This document shows positions 4,423 through 44,084 of a DNA stretch of 49,567 nt, piece by piece. Position numbers and translations under genes: made by a program. This stretch comes from Escherichia phage CJ19: the sequence record MT176427.1; one strand, written 5' to 3'. Every line of letters begins with the position of its first letter. Positions within the stretch are counted from its first letter, which is position 1. The notes below the pieces were generated by a model that had not been told where the DNA came from, did no database searches, and was given only the letters and a program-made list of their open reading frames with translations.

Positions 4423-4467
4423 ATAATAACAGCCATCGAAACCAATGTTTAACAAAAAGTGCTATTG
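4423..4467 (-). promoter_or_regulatory. promoter cassette for helicase operon
   Basis: Box variant ATAGCAC-N3-TTGTTAAA at 4448-4467; -10 TGtTATTAT; leader CAATCGAACGAACATGAAAGG. Confidence 0.45.
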
Positions 4468-9170: not shown

Positions 9171-9213
9171 ATTATAGCAAATCACCGCGTTCGTGTTTAG
9201 CAAAAAGTGCTAC
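9171..9213 (-). promoter_or_regulatory. early promoter cassette (ATAGCAC box + TGCTATAAT)
   Basis: Box 9196-9213; hairpin CGGTGAT/ATCACCG; consensus extended -10. Confidence 0.5.
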
Positions 9214-25333: not shown

Positions 25334-25451
25334 AATTTGTTTTCCTTTGTTTGTTAGAAAGCCGTGATTAAGTTCACGGCTCTATAATAGCATTTTTTGT
25401 TAAACGGTCAACAGCTTTTTATGTTAAGCGATTATGTCGCTCTCTGGCAAT

Positions 25452-34102: not shown

Positions 34103-34148
34103 ACTATACAGCTACCCCGATTATGAGTTTTAACAAAAAGTGCTATCG
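34103..34148 (-). promoter_or_regulatory. early promoter cassette (ATAGCAC box + TATAGT)
   Basis: Box 34128-34148; -10 at 34103-34108 in hairpin loop; 22-bp spacer. Confidence 0.5.
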
Positions 34149-34731: not shown

Positions 34732-34776
34732 ACTATAACAAAACCCGCCGGAGCGGGTTTAGCAATTAGTGCTATT
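34732..34776 (-). promoter_or_regulatory. early promoter cassette (ATAGCAC box + TGTTATAGT)
   Basis: Box 34757-34776; hairpin AACCCGC/GCGGGTT in spacer; 22-bp spacer. Confidence 0.5.
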
Positions 34777-35408
34777 TACCAGGGTAATCCATCTTCCCAC
34801 TCGTAAACATCAACCTCTGTAACTGGTGAGCTAATACCGCAAGCCTCAGCCACTGCCATTACACCGCCTTCAATATCACCATTGACCAGATGCACATCAT
34901 GCTCGTTATATTTCTTGTAATCAGGAAAATGCGATTCCTTGATGCGAATGTAATCACGGCTATCGCCAGCGAAAGTCTTGCCATCCATGAACAGGCGGAC
35001 CAGGGTAACATCGTGACCATCTTCAACGAGTCGGATCACTTCGTCGGGGAAGCCGCCATCAGTGCAAACAAAGCAGAAGCCTTCATCACACAGCTGGATA
35101 TGTTCGCTCATCAATTTGCCGAACTGCTGATTGCCAAAAAGCGGCTTGACCACTGTTTCGCTAATCCAGATCATGAACTCACGGCAGGTCTTGCCACCGA
35201 GAAATTTCTGAGGCTGCTCTTTCTGATCGCGGTAGTCGTATGCGGTGATGAACTTTGAGAAAGCTCTGGCACCAAGGATGGATGCCGCAATCTCAAACAT
35301 CGGACGCTTGAAGCTGGTAGGGATGCAGTTGTAATCCGCTGCGAGCGCGTTGCCGATCGTGTCTTTACCAACCGAAGCTGGACCGTTGAGAATGATAATC
35401 TTTGACAT
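34776..35408 (-). CDS. P-loop nucleotide/polynucleotide kinase-like protein
   Basis: N-terminal P-loop GPASVGKDT resembling NMP-kinase Walker A; 210 aa. Confidence 0.5.
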   Translation of the reverse strand: MSKIIILNGPASVGKDTIGNALAADYNCIPTSFKRPMFEIAASILGARAFSKFITAYDYRDQKEQPQKFLGGKTCREFMIWISETVVKPLFGNQQFGKLMSEHIQLCDEGFCFVCTDGGFPDEVIRLVEDGHDVTLVRLFMDGKTFAGDSRDYIRIKESHFPDYKKYNEHDVHLVNGDIEGGVMAVAEACGISSPVTEVDVYEWEDGLPW

Positions 35409-35451: not shown

Positions 35452-35997
35452 TTAGTTTGCTTTCTTGTCTACGCCGTGAGACTTAAGGCCGGAGTGCACG
35501 TTGTCGCCATAGTCACACACCTGATAGGTAGTGATGCCGAGGCTTCGGAAGTGCGCGATAACGCTAGGACTATCATCAAAGGCCGCAGTGATGCGGTGCA
35601 ATCCAATGTAGCGTAAAAATTCTTCCTTTATGATCGTGTCCTTGCGGTTATCATCAGCCTGGCGCATGACCAGAACGTTGTAATTAGCACCAGCATCATG
35701 CAGCCACTGCGTTGATTCCTCGACCACTGCGTCAGATCGACCAGTGAGAACGATAATGAAAGCACCGGAAGCGAACAGGCTATTCATTACGTCAATCGTT
35801 TCCTGGAATGGCTGATCGAACTTGCTCAATGAGTTAAATTCAAGCCATGACTCAGTGAGGTGCAAGTCATTTGTCGGTAGCTTGTGAAGGCGGTGCGAAC
35901 CGTCCGACAGAGTACCATCGAAATCAAATATGTAAACTTTCTTGTTTACTGCTTCCGTTTGAAGGTGATGCTTAATCATTGTGTAAAGCTGGTTCAT
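35452..35997 (-). CDS. HAD-superfamily phosphatase (putative 3-prime phosphatase)
   Basis: HAD motif I DFDGTL near N-terminus, further motifs VLTGRSD and FDDSPS; promoter cassette 36030-36075. Confidence 0.55.
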   Translation of the reverse strand: MNQLYTMIKHHLQTEAVNKKVYIFDFDGTLSDGSHRLHKLPTNDLHLTESWLEFNSLSKFDQPFQETIDVMNSLFASGAFIIVLTGRSDAVVEESTQWLHDAGANYNVLVMRQADDNRKDTIIKEEFLRYIGLHRITAAFDDSPSVIAHFRSLGITTYQVCDYGDNVHSGLKSHGVDKKAN

Positions 35998-36029: not shown

Positions 36030-36075
36030 ATTATACCAGTCAGGATGAATCCCCCTTTAACAAAACGTGCTATTT
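36030..36075 (-). promoter_or_regulatory. early promoter cassette (ATAGCAC box + TGGTATAAT)
   Basis: Box 36056-36075; 22-bp spacer; leader CATCAACCACACGAAAGGAAG before phosphatase ATG. Confidence 0.5.
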
Positions 36076-36917: not shown

Positions 36918-36963
36918 ACTATATCTAATGTCTCCGAGCAAGTTTTAACAAAAAGTGCTATTC
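36918..36963 (-). promoter_or_regulatory. early promoter cassette (ATAGCAC box + TATAGT)
   Basis: Box 36943-36963; hairpin GGAGACA/TGTCTCC with -10 in loop. Confidence 0.5.
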
Positions 36964-37761: not shown

Positions 37762-37807
37762 ACTATATCAAATGGCCTTGCGGAAGGTTTAACGATTAGT
37801 GCTATTT
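37762..37807 (-). promoter_or_regulatory. early promoter cassette (ATAGCAC box + TGATATAGT)
   Basis: Box 37788-37807; hairpin AAGGCCA/TGGCCTT with -10 in loop. Confidence 0.5.
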
Positions 37808-38115: not shown

Positions 38116-38329
38116 TGTGGCGCTCCATGTAGTCAGCCATTTTGATAAGGTGTTCACCCATTGCGCGGACTGTTGTCGACTCCCTCATGGGGAACGCTCC
38201 TGATTCGTGTTCAATCACCATCTCGACGGTTACAACTCCCAGCGTCTTTCTCGTGTAAATGCAGCAAGAATCACCATCTGAATCGTTAAATATCTTGCTT
38301 TCTTTCTTAATTTCATAATCGTTAATCAT
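38105..38329 (-). CDS. hypothetical protein (74 aa), possible distant member of the small-paralog family
   Basis: ATGA overlap with upstream paralog; C-terminal helix VRAMGEHLIKMADYME loosely resembles family helix. Confidence 0.35.
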   Translation of the reverse strand: MINDYEIKKESKIFNDSDGDSCCIYTRKTLGVVTVEMVIEHESGAFPMRESTTVRAMGEHLIKMADYMERHNEQ

Positions 38330-38553
38330 ACAATACCCTTATCAGCTCTGTGTGCAGCTTCAATCAGATACGCAGCTAACTGGCGAGCCTGGTCTGGCGT
38401 GTACAGCATGTAACTACTTGGGTATGATTCTTCGTGAGGGTTGAAGTCAAGGCGCACCTTGAAAGTCACCTTGTCATTGCTATGAATCTTCACAGCCTCA
38501 ATTTCGGCCTGCTCGTTGTAGTCGTCTGCGATGCGTACGGCGGTTGTGCTCAT
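38326..38553 (-). CDS. small paralog family member P1 (75 aa)
   Basis: C-terminal motif YTPDQARQLAAYLIEAA shared with 39113-39334 and 39331-39537; promoter cassette 38593-38638. Confidence 0.5.
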   Translation of the reverse strand: MSTTAVRIADDYNEQAEIEAVKIHSNDKVTFKVRLDFNPHEESYPSSYMLYTPDQARQLAAYLIEAAHRADKGIV

Positions 38554-38592
38554 AAATTACCCCTTAGTTGATTGTTTCACTTCAATGAGTGC

Positions 38593-38638
38593 ACTATAGC
38601 AAATGCACTCACGGCAGTTTTAACAAAAAGTGCTATCG
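38593..38638 (-). promoter_or_regulatory. early promoter cassette (ATAGCAC box + TGCTATAGT)
   Basis: Box 38618-38638; hairpin TGAGTGCA/TGCACTCA with -10 in loop; drives paralog P1. Confidence 0.5.
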
Positions 38639-38923
38639 TTCATCTTCTCTGGAGCATCCCTTGCCGCAACCATGGCGACCAACTTCCACGATCCCGACAC
38701 CGCTTAAGCCGATGTATTCCTGACCAGTGTCCTTATCGGTGATGACGTATATCGCTCTGACGTTCTCATATGCCAGTTCATCCCTGAACTCCTGAATCTT
38801 CACAACCTGGACGCGATCGTTGACATTCACTTGCATCTTCTGCCGAGCCTCTGAATCTACACGGGTGCTTCCGAAATCACATCCAGCCAGTGCTAGGGCT
38901 GCAATTAAGATTAACTTTTTCAT
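38633..38923 (-). CDS. small lipoprotein (96 aa)
   Basis: Signal peptide with lipobox (LALAGC); C-terminal Cys pair. Confidence 0.55.
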   Translation of the reverse strand: MKKLILIAALALAGCDFGSTRVDSEARQKMQVNVNDRVQVVKIQEFRDELAYENVRAIYVITDKDTGQEYIGLSGVGIVEVGRHGCGKGCSREDER

Positions 38924-39120
38924 TCTACCACCTTCAATACTTTCTCTTTGCGATGCGGTGCGCCGGACTTATGCAGCCAGTAGCGAGCCTGGGATAACTG
39001 GCTGGTGTGCCCAACCGTAACCAACCAGAACAGGGCTACCCTTTTCTGGATTGCATACCACTTGACCGGATGACAGAAGGCCGTAGTCGTGTCAATCAAT
39101 GCGATCCTGAATTTACTCAT
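38920..39120 (-). CDS. hypothetical protein
   Basis: ORF-track frame 38920-39177; start moved to Met20 (MSKFRIA) just after upstream stop. Confidence 0.3.
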   Translation of the reverse strand: MSKFRIALIDTTTAFCHPVKWYAIQKRVALFWLVTVGHTSQLSQARYWLHKSGAPHRKEKVLKVVE

Positions 39121-39334
39121 CACCTTCTTCTTCCTCCACTTCCTCAGCCGCTTTGATGAGTGCCGCCGCCAGTTCACGAGCCTGCTCTGCTGTGTAGGTC
39201 ATGCCAGCGCCGTCTGCCTGCGAATCTGGCGCGAGGTCCAGGTGCACGCGCTTGCGCATCTTGCCAAATGGAACCTTGATTACTGAGATTTCCGTTTCCT
39301 GATTCCATGATGAATTGACTCGAATATCTCTCAT
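39113..39334 (-). CDS. small paralog family member P2 (73 aa)
   Basis: C-terminal motif YTAEQARELAAALIKAAEE plus poly-acidic tail; ATGA overlap with P3. Confidence 0.5.
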   Translation of the reverse strand: MRDIRVNSSWNQETEISVIKVPFGKMRKRVHLDLAPDSQADGAGMTYTAEQARELAAALIKAAEEVEEEEGDE

Positions 39335-39537
39335 TGCTTTTCAGCCTCTTCTGCTGCCAGGATAAGCGCCGCCGCCAGCTTGCGTGCTTGCTCTGGTGTG
39401 TAGTGCATCATGGTAACGCCCTGATCGTCAGTATCGAAGTCAATGGAGACTACGGCCTTGACTACTCCAGTCCGATTGAGCAGAACGCTAACCTCGGCAT
39501 CATCACCAACCACATCCTCAATGCGTAAAATTTCCAT
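39331..39537 (-). CDS. small paralog family member P3 (68 aa)
   Basis: C-terminal motif YTPEQARKLAAALILAAEEAE. Confidence 0.5.
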   Translation of the reverse strand: MEILRIEDVVGDDAEVSVLLNRTGVVKAVVSIDFDTDDQGVTMMHYTPEQARKLAAALILAAEEAEKQ

Positions 39538-39539
39538 AA

Positions 39540-39754
39540 TTATTTCCCCTCCGCTTCGTCTGCTGCAAGGATTAATGCCGCCGCTAACTTGCGGGCCGCG
39601 TCAGGTGAGTATTGCATCAGCGTTTGACAGTCGGAGTAACCGTCAGGATCGAATTCAAGGTTGACAACATGCCCGCGAACGGTTCCCATCGTGACGCTGA
39701 CCCCTCTGCTTGTTCAAAGTGAACATCGTCAATGCGTACAGTTTACATAATCAT
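39540..39754 (-). pseudogene. decayed fourth copy of the small paralog family (P4)
   Basis: Manual translation: ATG ATT ATG TAA (stop at codon 4), then TVRIDDVHFEQAEG in one frame and VSVTMGTVRGHVVNLEFDPDGYSDCQTLMQYSPDAARKLAAALILAADEAEGK in another; intact promoter cassette 39779-39824 and RBS. Confidence 0.45.
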
Positions 39755-39778: not shown

Positions 39779-39824
39779 ATCATAGCTGACTACCCGATTT
39801 GTTGTTTAGCAATTCGTGCTATTC
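39779..39824 (-). promoter_or_regulatory. early promoter cassette (ATAGCAC box + TATGAT)
   Basis: Box 39805-39824; 22-bp spacer; drives decayed P4 and P3-P2 operon. Confidence 0.45.
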
Positions 39825-40373
39825 ACCGTTCAGGAGAGTTTTCGCTTTCCGGTAGAACTGGATGGCCTTCTCCACCTCATCGGCATCATAGCCATGGATG
39901 GTTGGCGGCTTAATCGGCTCAACGTAGTGAGAGCGTGGCGCATCAGATCGGTACTGACTGCACCAGCTGTACACGTCTCGCTCATGCATTCCCGCCAGGG
40001 CTGGATGCACAAATATCTTGTCGCCAATCCGGCAGATGATTCCGGCGTCCTGGAGTGACGGCAGGATGTTATTGCTCAGGTCATTGTATATGCCATCACG
40101 TCCGACGAATGGTATGACCTCTCTGATTTGTCTGTATAGCTGGCTCACACAAACCATTCCGGTATTGCCGCATAAGCGCTTAATCTTATGCACCACGACG
40201 CCGTATTTGTAACTCAGCTTGACGCACGACATCTCTTCGGAGCTTGACCAATATTTGAAGGTGTCGCGATAGCCATTTGCACTGATCGCAACCTTAAGCG
40301 GTGACATGCCGCTTTCACTGGCTTCATTGAATATCTGCTCGCCTGTCATTCTTTCGCTCCCGAAGTAACTCAT
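39819..40373 (-). CDS. hypothetical protein sharing N- and C-terminal modules with the 527-aa ATPase
   Basis: SPLKVAISANGYR and ICRIGDKIFVHPALAG match PPLRVAINANGYR and TCLIGDKIYINPRLLG of 44541-46124. Confidence 0.5.
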   Translation of the reverse strand: MSYFGSERMTGEQIFNEASESGMSPLKVAISANGYRDTFKYWSSSEEMSCVKLSYKYGVVVHKIKRLCGNTGMVCVSQLYRQIREVIPFVGRDGIYNDLSNNILPSLQDAGIICRIGDKIFVHPALAGMHERDVYSWCSQYRSDAPRSHYVEPIKPPTIHGYDADEVEKAIQFYRKAKTLLNGE

Positions 40374-40894
40374 TATTTGGTTTCCTTAATCATTTCATGG
40401 TAGCGAGCCAGGGCAATGAGCGCACCTTCTTTCTGCTCACCTTGCAGGTCGATAACGTTCGGTGTGATCTTGAGCAGCCGAGACTTGAACCTTTCAACGA
40501 TTACCGCCTCCTTTTCCTCGTCACCCTTGCGTCGTGTTCCGGCCTGGATAGCACCATCAACCAGGGTGATGTAAGCACATCGAACATCGACATCATCCCC
40601 GAAGTCGCCATCCTTGATTGACAGCTTGGCCCGAACGTTCGCCGCCTGAATCTCTGGCATCCTGGCAACCGTGTTAGAGACGTACGAGGCTTTCAGCTTT
40701 GCAACGCTGTACTTACCGCCAGCCTCAAGGTCGTCGGCATTGATTCTGCCCATATCATCAGCCGTGAGTCCGTACATCTGGCGAGCTATCAGGTGGATTG
40801 GAACGTGGTAACTTCGGTTCTCGGACTTGAGCGCTTGCTCCGCCATGTAGCGGACGACATCTCCCAGGCTTACGGATTGATTATGATTTGACAT
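40373..40894 (-). CDS. hypothetical protein (173 aa)
   Basis: First leftward gene after the 40895-41612 control region. Confidence 0.4.
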   Translation of the reverse strand: MSNHNQSVSLGDVVRYMAEQALKSENRSYHVPIHLIARQMYGLTADDMGRINADDLEAGGKYSVAKLKASYVSNTVARMPEIQAANVRAKLSIKDGDFGDDVDVRCAYITLVDGAIQAGTRRKGDEEKEAVIVERFKSRLLKITPNVIDLQGEQKEGALIALARYHEMIKETK

Positions 40895-41031
40895 AGATAT
40901 TACTCCTGATTGGTGGTCTTCGTTAAGATGGGTGCAATATTACCAGCATGGTTACATGTTATCAAGTGTTATTGATGCAAATATTCGACTTAGTTACGTT
41001 TTACGACCTCTTGAGCCAGATATAGCTCAAT

Positions 41032-41280
41032 GTAACCACTATGTACAGCTTGTACATCAAATTTCGCGGAGGATTGCCCCATATATGCCTTTTTATTCCT
41101 ACAATGTCATCCCATTCTTACAAGTGTCAGAATATATCATAGAAAGCTATCGCAATATCCAATACCTCTTATCTACATTATCTACATATATATATAATAA
41201 TAATAATAATATAGATAAAAGGTTGTTATATAAGGATATTTTATTGTAACCATAGCGTAACTAGGCGTTATAGGCGTACC
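41032..41280. repeat. AT-rich control-region element, copy B
   Basis: Contains ATAGCTCAATGTAA (41032-41045), (AT)5(AAT)5 at 41186-41210, TAAAAGGTTGTTATA...GATATTTTATTGTAAC and GCGTAA/GGCGTT/GGCGTA repeats. Confidence 0.7.
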
Positions 41281-41527
41281 TGATTCCACGCCGGATGGAT
41301 TTGTCTACAGAGTATAACATGCATAACGCGTATGCGGTGGAAACGTGTGGCGGAAAAATCCTACCAGGCGATCATGGGATCAGATCTCACCCCATCATTC
41401 CCCCCACCAATGAATCATCGCTCAATTCGCAACAATCAAAAACATCATTGCATCGGAAGCAATATTGCTGTATGTGCAATAGTCATGATAATCATTGCAA
41501 TATCTGCAACAATCCATAAATCCAACG

Positions 41528-41574
41528 AATAGCACTTTTTGCTAATGACCGATCAGGTGTGATTCGCTATTATT
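41528..41574 (+). promoter_or_regulatory. promoter cassette (ATAGCAC box + TATTAT)
   Basis: Box 41528-41546; -10 at 41569-41574; leader CCATCGAAACGAG. Confidence 0.5.
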
Positions 41575-41612
41575 ACTCCATCGAAACGAGTGAAGAGAAC
41601 TGGAGAAAATAA

Positions 41613-41816
41613 ATGAGCACTGTAAAAATGTATTGCTACATCGTGATGTCTGAGCCGTGTGATCCGAATTACGATACGACAGTTCACTGCGTATGCCTCA
41701 GTGAACAGATGGCTAAGCAGGTTTGCGAGAAGATGAACATGCGCGATGGTTTCAACAACTATGAATACTACGAAGCGGAGTTGCAGAAATGGAGTTACGC
41801 CAAGAATGTGCACTGA
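41613..41816 (+). CDS. hypothetical Cys-containing small protein (67 aa)
   Basis: Promoter cassette 41528-41574 and leader CCATCGAAACGAG upstream. Confidence 0.4.
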   Translation: MSTVKMYCYIVMSEPCDPNYDTTVHCVCLSEQMAKQVCEKMNMRDGFNNYEYYEAELQKWSYAKNVH

Positions 41817-42015
41817 TTGGCAGCGGTAACGAGTATCTAATCCGTTGCGACAACTAAAGTCCTGAAGTGTTCCGCCTGGTGGGTGAGATGCCAGTACAGG
41901 CAACCGCTATGAATGCTAAGACTATTGAGTGGGCGCTACTTTACGGTGGTGTGGCACGGGTAATCGGCCAGGCCAAAATCACTGTTGATATTTCACTAAT
42001 TTAAGGAATTGACAA

Positions 42016-43379: not shown

Positions 43380-44044
43380 AAAAGGTAATTTACTGCTTGT
43401 TCGACGGTTCTGGTATCGCTGGCCTCCCATGGGCGGAAGATGGTCACACCGTCTACTGCTTCAATGCGGACTCCGGCAATCATGGCGAATACCATATCAA
43501 GATGAAGCATGAGAACATCCACTACGTCAACATGTGGATTGACAAGGATTTCATCACTAAGTGTGAATTGCTCGGCCTGCCTCCGGCGCAAATGGTTATC
43601 GGCTTTCCTGATTGCACGCTGTTCTCTCAGTCTGGATCACAGCATGAGCGCGGGGAAGATGAGCTGGCATACGCCCTGGCTAACGCGAAGCTCGTCGAAG
43701 AAGTCGGCAATCACTTCCAGGCACCATGGATGGTTGAGAATCCGGTAGGCAAGCTGTCAAGCCTGTGGCGTAAGCCTGACTTCTATTTCAATCCTTGCGA
43801 TTATGGCGGTTACGTTGATCACGATGATGTTTATCACCCAAGAATGCCCCCTCGTAATGCTTACAATAAAAAGACTTGCATTTGGTGTGGCAATGGATTT
43901 GTTGAACCTATTAAAAAGCCAGTTGAGAGCATTGGATTCTTCTGGGCCTGGAAATACTGCGGCGGAAAGTCTGCAAAGACAAAGGTACTCCGCTCATTAA
44001 CACCGGAAGGCTTTGCTCGCGCACTATATGAAAGCAACAAATAG
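43376..44044 (+). CDS. DNA methyltransferase-like protein (C5-cytosine-type motif order)
   Basis: Motif I-like FDGSG, motif IV-like GFPDC with Cys, motif VI-like ENPVG in the right order and spacing; short (222 aa). Confidence 0.4.
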   Translation: MKKVIYCLFDGSGIAGLPWAEDGHTVYCFNADSGNHGEYHIKMKHENIHYVNMWIDKDFITKCELLGLPPAQMVIGFPDCTLFSQSGSQHERGEDELAYALANAKLVEEVGNHFQAPWMVENPVGKLSSLWRKPDFYFNPCDYGGYVDHDDVYHPRMPPRNAYNKKTCIWCGNGFVEPIKKPVESIGFFWAWKYCGGKSAKTKVLRSLTPEGFARALYESNK

Positions 44045-44084
44045 CACTAATTGCTAAAGCCCTTCGGGGCTTTTCCTGTATATT
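44040..44084 (+). promoter_or_regulatory. promoter cassette (ATAGCAC box + TGTATATT)
   Basis: Box 44040-44058; hairpin AGCCC/GGGCT; leader TCATCGAAACGAAACAC. Confidence 0.5.

Follow-up and report, generated by a model that had tools for sequence, protein, structure and literature searches.

What a phage gains from encoding several versions of one very small protein is the question raised by an array of genes in Escherichia phage CJ19 (Drexlerviridae; sequence record MT176427.1), the complete genome of which (49,567 bp) is the window analyzed here. In the original prediction, four small tandem genes, denoted P1 to P4, were recognized as paralogs, a fifth was tentatively added, and the set was interpreted as a host-interaction or counter-defense family under diversifying selection. 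All the coordinates assigned to these genes were correct, and the genes are located on the minus strand, within a long leftward operon. We find that the array encodes a phage-restricted family of acidic proteins of ~70 residues, which comprises PHROG 13316 and the distant PHROG 16871. This family is best described as an acidic, multi-copy variant of the kind of protein exemplified by gp4.5 of phage T7 and, as such, is new compared with known systems. The chance that the copies are accessory binders or inhibitors of host proteins appears to be about even. The main rivals of this reading are that the proteins are acidic decoys that mimic DNA or that they have a role internal to the phage.

Paralogous genes of the array

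Three of the four copies are intact. P1 (38326-38553, minus strand) encodes a protein of 75 amino acids with an isoelectric point (pI) of 5.2, P2 (39113-39334, minus strand) a protein of 73 amino acids with an acidic tail and a pI of 4.6, and P3 (CJ19_059; 39331-39537, minus strand) a protein of 68 amino acids with a pI of 4.3. P1 and P3 were matched by the hidden Markov model (HMM) of the family with E-values of 7.6e-27 and 1.6e-28, respectively, and P2 was identified as an open reading frame (ORF) recognized by the same HMM. In pairwise BLASTP comparisons, P1 to P4 were similar to one another with E-values of 1e-6 to 1e-11 (for a phage-sized database), in agreement with their description as small tandem paralogs. 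The motif that the original prediction had quoted was found in the copies, and the proposed division into a more variable N-terminal beta part and a conserved C-terminal helix was confirmed. The proteins were split at the start of the helix, and the Smith-Waterman scores of each half were compared with those of 2000 shuffles, yielding z-scores of 3.8-11.4 for the strand-rich part that precedes the helix and 10-16 for the helix. Thus, both halves are homologous separately, and the match among P1 to P4 rests on more than the Ala-rich, low-complexity helix. PHROG 13316, a family with no assigned function, matched P3 over its full length (E = 7.2e-18), as well as P2 (2.2e-9), P4 (3.3e-7), and P1 (3.2e-4). 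Every copy is preceded by a Shine-Dalgarno sequence, and most of the start codons overlap the preceding stop codon; the stop codon of P3 overlaps the start of P2 (ATGA), and that of P1 overlaps the start of the following gene, P5.

P4 (39540-39754, minus strand) is a decayed paralog, which was aligned at the DNA level with its intact 70-amino-acid ortholog in phage 50EP (L001:5514-5726) and was matched by the family HMM over positions 16-70 (E = 1e-20). The start codons of the ancestral gene are those at 39754-39752 and 39748-39746. Compared with the 50EP ortholog, P4 contains a nonsense change (GAA to TAA) at 39745-39743 and a +2 frameshift caused by two additional G residues in the G-run at 39704-39701, which bears out the decay originally postulated for this copy; these lesions may be sequencing errors. 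The residual ORF (39540-39689) encodes 49 amino acids from an internal ATG. The ratio of nonsynonymous to synonymous substitution rates (dN/dS) of this ORF against its orthologs is 0.14-0.30, not above that of the intact copies, suggesting that either the decay is recent or the truncated product is still in use.

Selection and diversification

Orthologs from the genomes of eleven related Drexlerviridae and of one member of the Vequintavirinae were compared pairwise using the Nei-Gojobori method. For every paralog and for both halves of the proteins, dN/dS was within the range of 0.03-0.45 (0.03-0.24 among the P2 orthologs), at dS values that often exceeded 0.5 and reached more than 1. The strand-rich half was usually somewhat less constrained than the helix, with dN/dS never approaching 1. 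This purifying selection indicates that the copies are real, functional genes; together with the number of homologs, it rules out chance ORFs. At this pairwise resolution, the diversifying selection that had been postulated for the family was not observed, and gene-wide diversification of this kind was rejected because dN/dS was well below 1 throughout.

The variation among the copies instead stems from old divergence of paralogs and alleles, recombination, and changing cassette content. Several distinct, old types of paralogs were delineated, namely, P1, P2, P3, the P4 type, a type denoted "X," a short type, and P5, and P1 itself comes with two alternative N-terminal alleles. The copy in phage ETEP102 (L007:3271-3474) is chimeric, with strands 1 and 2 of the P4 type and the remainder of the P3 type, and some database members combine the N-terminus of P2 with the helix of P1 or the N-terminus of P1 with the helix of P3 or P4 (P0022, P0025, P0096). 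These intragenic chimeras imply that the paralogs recombine with one another.

Distribution of the family

The family is accessory, mobile, and found only in phages. The closest relatives of CJ19 are T1-like siphoviruses of the Drexlerviridae, mainly of the genus Nouzillyvirus, which carry between one copy (SU57 and CEB_EC3a) and four copies (TH30), with P5, if present, adding to this number; the family is missing in T1. Single paralogs matched 6-18 of 50,697 phage records, compared with 585 records that share the structural region of CJ19. No match to the family was found in plasmids or complete Escherichia coli genomes, and when 1.84 billion representative proteins were exhaustively scanned with the HMM, only 66 clusters were obtained at E ≤ 1e-3, none of them annotated.

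Outside the Drexlerviridae, a P3-type gene with 82% protein identity is found among small hypothetical genes of Vequintavirinae, myoviruses with genomes of 141-145 kb, including Escherichia phages A5-4 (L012:5001-5204), A7_1, and LTH01. The dS between this copy and the one in TH30 is only 0.22, which indicates that the gene was transferred horizontally, fairly recently, between phage groups that are not related. The relatives most remote from CJ19 are small proteins, all unannotated, from Streptomyces (L018 and L019, 6001-6186) and Kribbella (L020, 6001-6363), which retain the helix motif TP-x-QAR-x-LAAAL-x-x-AA and are encoded in prophage-type chains of overlapping small genes. The neighboring genes encode HNH, sigma-70-like, D5-type primase, deoxynucleoside monophosphate (dNMP) kinase, and DNA methylase proteins; these actinobacterial neighborhoods provided no functional clue, and searches started from the distant members retrieved hypothetical proteins only. 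A short divergent type (~52 amino acids, …FMTPEQALELAAALVSAANEANNQ) is encoded next to full-length members in phages JulesPiccard (L010:4325-4480) and PH1062 (L008:3531-3692) and is missing in CJ19.

This distribution bears on the possibility that the proteins serve the phage itself, for instance, as small proteins that regulate replication, transcription, or packaging or act as chaperones in these processes, with the paralogs being partly redundant. Such a role would fit the purifying selection and the location of the genes in the same leftward operon as the genes for terminase, polynucleotide kinase, and dNMP kinase. We nevertheless consider it unlikely, given that the family is missing not only in T1 but in most Drexlerviridae with the same core genes, that its copy number varies from 1 to 4, that the same gene is present in unrelated 145-kb myoviruses, and that one copy, P4, was allowed to decay. 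The CJ19 proteins, being acidic, are, furthermore, unlikely binders of nucleic acids.

Predicted structure

An AlphaFold2 (AF2) run with a shallow alignment yielded an unreliable model with a predicted local distance difference test (pLDDT) score of 63 and was superseded by a run with 46 diverse sequences. In the latter, P3 was modeled with a pLDDT of 88.5 and a predicted template modeling (pTM) score of 0.72, with strands at residues 4-7, 13-20, 28-33, and 43-46 followed by an Ala-rich, amphipathic helix at residues 48-67. Thus, structure prediction of the monomer, which had been proposed as a check along with the original prediction, returned a confident four-strand-plus-helix model.

A Foldseek search of this model against the PDB yielded no significant hits (E >0.7); the best template modeling (TM) scores, 0.70-0.74, were those of PURA repeats, with similar scores for the COMM domains and the N-terminal domain of KhtT, which are not nucleic acid binders. 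In the BFVD database, only members of the family itself were significant; one entry (A0A385E6M1, 89 amino acids, TM score 0.72) is a possible, unconfirmed gp4.5-type protein. The CJ19 model shares the four-strand-plus-helix topology with the PUR, PC4, and Whirly domains, from which it differs in sequence, at ~10% identity and with no sequence-level relationship detected. PUR repeats, PC4, and COMM domains function as intertwined dimers. Given that this fold class pairs into dimers, homodimers and heterodimers of the CJ19 paralogs are plausible judging from the model. The PUR, PC4, and Whirly domains bind single-stranded nucleic acids via a basic or aromatic face of the sheet, whereas the CJ19 family is acidic by overall charge, which argues against nucleic acid binding. 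Considering also the insignificant Foldseek E-values and the comparable scores of the non-binding COMM and KhtT domains, binding of, for example, single-stranded DNA or RNA in the manner of PUR or PC4 is the least probable of the functions considered here, by our estimate very improbable.

The same features could point to the opposite relationship with nucleic acids, namely, that the proteins mimic them. The acidic DNA-mimic anti-restriction proteins Ocr, ArdA, and gp5.9 of T7 have several traits in common with the CJ19 proteins, in that both groups are small in size, strongly acidic, and accessory, with genes close to an end of the phage genome. The CJ19 proteins carry a net charge of -4 to -8 on 68-75 residues (pI 4.3-5.2), the tail of P2 is poly-acidic, dimerizing, nucleic acid-binding folds with four strands and a helix are the closest structural matches, and the genes are located in an accessory cassette. 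Dimers built on a PUR/PC4-type fold, but with a negatively charged surface, could act as decoys for host DNA-binding proteins involved in defense or repair, for example, restriction enzymes or nucleases. Yet, the PDB sequence and Foldseek searches revealed neither a sequence nor a fold match to known DNA mimics, Ocr, ArdA, and gp5.9 included; 6 of the 46 family members are basic; and gp4.5, the sole lead from sequence comparison, is basic and is no DNA mimic. Overall, mimicry of DNA or another nucleic acid seems to be an unlikely function, about on a par with a phage-internal role.

Possible relationship to T7 gp4.5 and predicted function

None of the Pfam and NCBIfam families matched any of the copies above threshold, and PDB sequences yielded nothing below an E-value of 0.07. 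The original prediction would have been undermined by assignment of the family to a well-characterized structural or housekeeping group; searches of Pfam, PHROGs, PDB sequences, and NCBIfam produced no such match, and a structural or housekeeping role was rejected on this ground and because of the patchy distribution. Weak Pfam matches to DUF6907, BssS, EutQ, and DUF7739 covered only the helix, were far below the cutoffs, and were discarded.

The one recurring sub-threshold Pfam match that spans nearly the whole protein is PF17574 (TA_inhibitor), the family of T7 gp4.5. Residues 9-67 of P2, the copy with the strongest conservation and with the closest similarity to gp4.5, aligned with positions 16-71 of this HMM (15.3 bits, E = 0.021), and 6 of 25 family members matched it at E <1, the best with an E-value of 1.2e-4; no match at E ≤ 1 was obtained for P1, P3, P4, or P5. 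Comparison of the family profile with the T7 gp4.5 sequence using hhalign gave a probability of 89.5% (E = 2e-6, 62 columns), and comparison of the 46-sequence family profile with a 29-sequence gp4.5 profile gave 67.7% (E = 4.9e-5, score 29.3, 59 columns). In controls of the profile-profile comparison, 400 column shuffles had mean scores of 9.5-9.8 (standard deviation 2.1, maximum 18.9), and the reversed profile scored 12.6. The structural elements follow in the same order in the two families, such that strand 1 has the pattern I-R-[IL]-x-D, hydrophobic residues alternate in strands 2 and 3, and M-T-x-T-x-E-Q-A-x-x-L-x-x-A-L-x-x-A-A extends across strand 4 and the helix; the common motif is H-T-x-R-M-T-x-T-x-E-Q-A-x-x-L-x-x-A-L-x-K-A-A, and H-T-x-R-(x)-M-T-x-T-x-E-Q-A is found both in gp4.5 and in some of the P2 variants.

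Several observations weigh against this relationship and against a role in host inhibition. P2 scores below the gathering cutoff of PF17574 (15.3 versus 27 bits), HMM-to-sequence scores between the family and gp4.5 amount to merely 12-18 bits, and the P2 subfamily taken alone aligns with gp4.5 over 26 columns, mostly in strand 4 and the helix. P5 showed no similarity to gp4.5 in profile comparison. The charges are opposite, with a median pI of 4.4 in the CJ19 family compared with 9.9 (range 9.5-11.3) in the gp4.5 family, and gp4.5 has an additional C-terminal segment, whereas the CJ19 copies end at the helix. All homologs are labeled "hypothetical." Finally, the pairwise dN/dS analysis detected no positive selection, which weakens an arms-race interpretation. 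On balance, sequence comparison somewhat favors true homology between the CJ19 family and gp4.5.

Both are small phage proteins, non-essential in the case of gp4.5. They differ in that gp4.5 is a basic, single-copy protein of 87-105 amino acids found in T7-like podoviruses, whereas the CJ19 proteins are acidic, consist of 68-75 amino acids, and are encoded in multiple copies by T1-like siphoviruses; function has been demonstrated for gp4.5 alone. A PDB sequence profile search found no relative of gp4.5 with a solved structure. gp4.5 has been reported to bind and inhibit the Lon protease, blocking the protease-dependent activation of toxin-antitoxin defense (PMC10286901), and a knockout screen suggests roles of gp4.5 against CcdAB and RADAR (PMC11482910). 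Accordingly, of the proposed host-interaction or counter-defense family under diversifying selection, the first part is retained, in that the family is accessory and its sole lead is an anti-defense protein, and the diversifying selection is not.

Taken together, the observations can be accommodated by a mechanism in which the CJ19 proteins would be remote, non-essential relatives of gp4.5 that act by attaching to a host protein and inhibiting it. Among the candidate targets, the most concrete would be Lon, or else a different ATPase, by which toxin-antitoxin or abortive-infection defense is triggered; for Lon specifically, we consider inhibition to be rather improbable. The conserved helix could form the core of the protein or a dimer interface, and the more variable face of the beta-sheet might determine the target specificity of each paralog. 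An elaboration of this mechanism would have the adjacent, translationally coupled copies pair through their Ala-rich helices into homodimers and heterodimers of the PUR type, with the acidic, variable sheets mimicking nucleic acid or some other ligand, such that each cassette would supply several inhibitors directed against different host defense proteins and belonging to a modular, hitherto unrecognized superfamily of anti-defense decoys; this combination appears to be a long shot, slightly less probable still than simple DNA mimicry.

A distant family member

The gene following P1, denoted P5 (38105-38329, minus strand), encodes a protein of 74 amino acids with a pI of 5.0 that matches phrog_16871 (E = 4.8e-12) and was classified as a distant superfamily member based on a profile match and synteny. 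Neither BLASTP nor Smith-Waterman alignment detected pairwise similarity between P5 and P1 to P4. In hhalign, the profile of P5 orthologs, nevertheless, aligned with that of the family over its entire length (probability 91%, E = 1e-6, 71 columns), with a score of 35.8 compared with a mean of 9.6 and a maximum of 17.3 for column shuffles, and P5 was the sole further ORF in the genome that was matched by the family HMM (E = 0.07). In every examined relative that possesses P1, P5 directly follows it. Thus, the tentative inclusion of this gene as a fifth member was upheld, by profile comparison only. The P5 ortholog in 50EP (L001:4288-4512) carries a "DUF600" label in GenBank; this label seems to be unfounded because a Pfam scan of the nearly identical CJ19 P5 was empty at E ≤ 1.

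Cassettes and the repeated intergenic element

The array was originally described as being interrupted by a lipoprotein gene. This gene is indeed present, but it is one of two unrelated genes between P1 and P2. It encodes a protein of 96 amino acids with the lipobox LAGC (38633-38923, minus strand; phrog_16585, E = 3e-11). The second gene (38920-39120, minus strand) is an ORF for a basic protein of 66 amino acids (pI 10.3) that has an annotated ortholog in 50EP and matches the function-less phrog_2010 (E = 1.4e-12); it overlaps both the stop codon of P2 and the start of the lipoprotein gene. The gap between P1 and P2 additionally contains a conserved 79-nt spacer with a putative regulatory role. 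The lipoprotein was also matched, weakly (E = 3e-4), by phrog_1119, the Cor family of superinfection-exclusion proteins. By this similarity, it might be an exclusion protein that shares a cassette with P2 and P3.

Elements that carry a conserved box, ATAGCACTTTTTGTTAAA, flank the array and also fall inside it, so that the array is split into two cassettes. Cassette 1 consists of P4, P3, P2, the gene for the 66-amino-acid protein, and, as its last gene, that for the lipoprotein; cassette 2 starts with P1 and contains, besides P5, two further small ORFs. The element between the two cassettes (38576-38636, minus strand; repeat family D2/D3) resembles a promoter combined with a stem-loop: it contains the exact box, and a hairpin, GAGTGCA/TGCACTC, surrounds the hexamer TATAGT. 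This element is nearly invariant in five related genomes, in which the flanking genes have dS values of 0.4-0.9. A degenerate copy is located at the start of cassette 1, directly upstream of P4 (39779-39825, minus strand), where a box with 4 mismatches (39805-39822) is accompanied by a promoter-like sequence, TAAACA-18-TATGAT (39808-39779), and a 9-bp hairpin that overlaps the -10-like hexamer.

The genome contains 11 matches to the box with at most 3 mismatches, compared with 0.08 expected. The copies are always oriented with the local genes and often begin at the upstream stop codon. On the minus strand, they are found at 4448-4465, 9196-9213, 34129-34146, 34758-34775, 36056-36073, 36944-36961, 37788-37805, and 38619-38636, in addition to the degenerate copy, and on the plus strand at 25387-25404, 41529-41546, and 44041-44058. 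The box is followed by a TATAGT or TATAAT hexamer inside or next to an inverted repeat of 7-10 bp, the stem of which differs from copy to copy; the 3' part of the element consists of a conserved ATCGAAACGA box and then a ribosome-binding site. The TTGTTA within the box is separated from the -10-like hexamer by 21-22 nt, more than the spacing of a standard sigma-70 promoter allows, so that the promoter role and its timing are only putative.

In 10 of 11 related Drexlerviridae loci, the family genes are located between boxes, with different contents (the TH27 sequence ends before the downstream box). Conservation of the box extends across the Drexlerviridae and includes T1, in which it is present without a family member. 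This arrangement is reminiscent of T4-type phages, in which small genes are shuffled by promoter-early stem-loop (PeSL) cassettes (PMC2839356, PMC4122927). In both cases, a repeated intergenic motif that combines promoter-like and stem-loop features flanks small variable ORFs, and this motif is retained at its position even where close relatives differ in the contents of the cassettes. The differences are that CJ19 belongs to another phage family and has another motif (ATAGCACTTTTTGTTAAA ... TATAGT ... ATCGAAACGA).

Genomic context

The leftward operon that includes the array originates in a divergent regulatory region, rich in AT, at about 40,900-42,000, where ~25 small genes are followed by the polynucleotide kinase and dNMP kinase genes and, finally, by those for the terminase and the virion. 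The equivalent genes are located within the first 1.5-2.5 kb of the T1 record and of the records of relatives that begin at the physical left end; the T1 annotation describes this region as a terminal repeat of 2.8 kb. The early expression assumed in the original prediction is putative, the only indications being the promoter-like elements and this location close to the left end of the genome. Of the two genes with which the operon begins (39819-40373 and 40373-40894, minus strand), one encodes a DUF7174 protein (E = 5e-52) and the other a 184-amino-acid phrog_7327 protein; residues 60-127 of the phrog_7327 protein resemble the extreme C-terminus of the PHROG helicase family phrog_2373 (E = 4e-15). 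The genes for polynucleotide kinase (35452-35997, minus strand) and dNMP kinase (34776-35408, minus strand) are located downstream of the array in the same operon. The polynucleotide kinase of T4 mends tRNA cleaved by a host anticodon nuclease, a defense enzyme. By analogy, the operon region with the polynucleotide kinase gene may hold further counter-defense functions.

Implications

If the link to gp4.5 is false, the CJ19 genes represent an ordinary uncharacterized accessory family of the sort typical of phage small-gene regions. If both this link and the inhibitory role are correct, gp4.5 would change from a curiosity of a single family of T7-like phages to a representative of a wider superfamily, and should the paralogs in addition act combinatorially through pairing and ligand mimicry, this gp4.5-like superfamily would span T7-like, T1-like, and rV5-like phages as well as actinobacterial prophages. 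The array would then also provide the first candidate inhibitors of Lon or of toxin-antitoxin defense for T1-like phages, which are widely used in defense-system screens and in phage therapy. The multi-copy, chimeric, and cassette-borne layout of these genes amounts to a natural experiment on the diversification of specificity in very small proteins.

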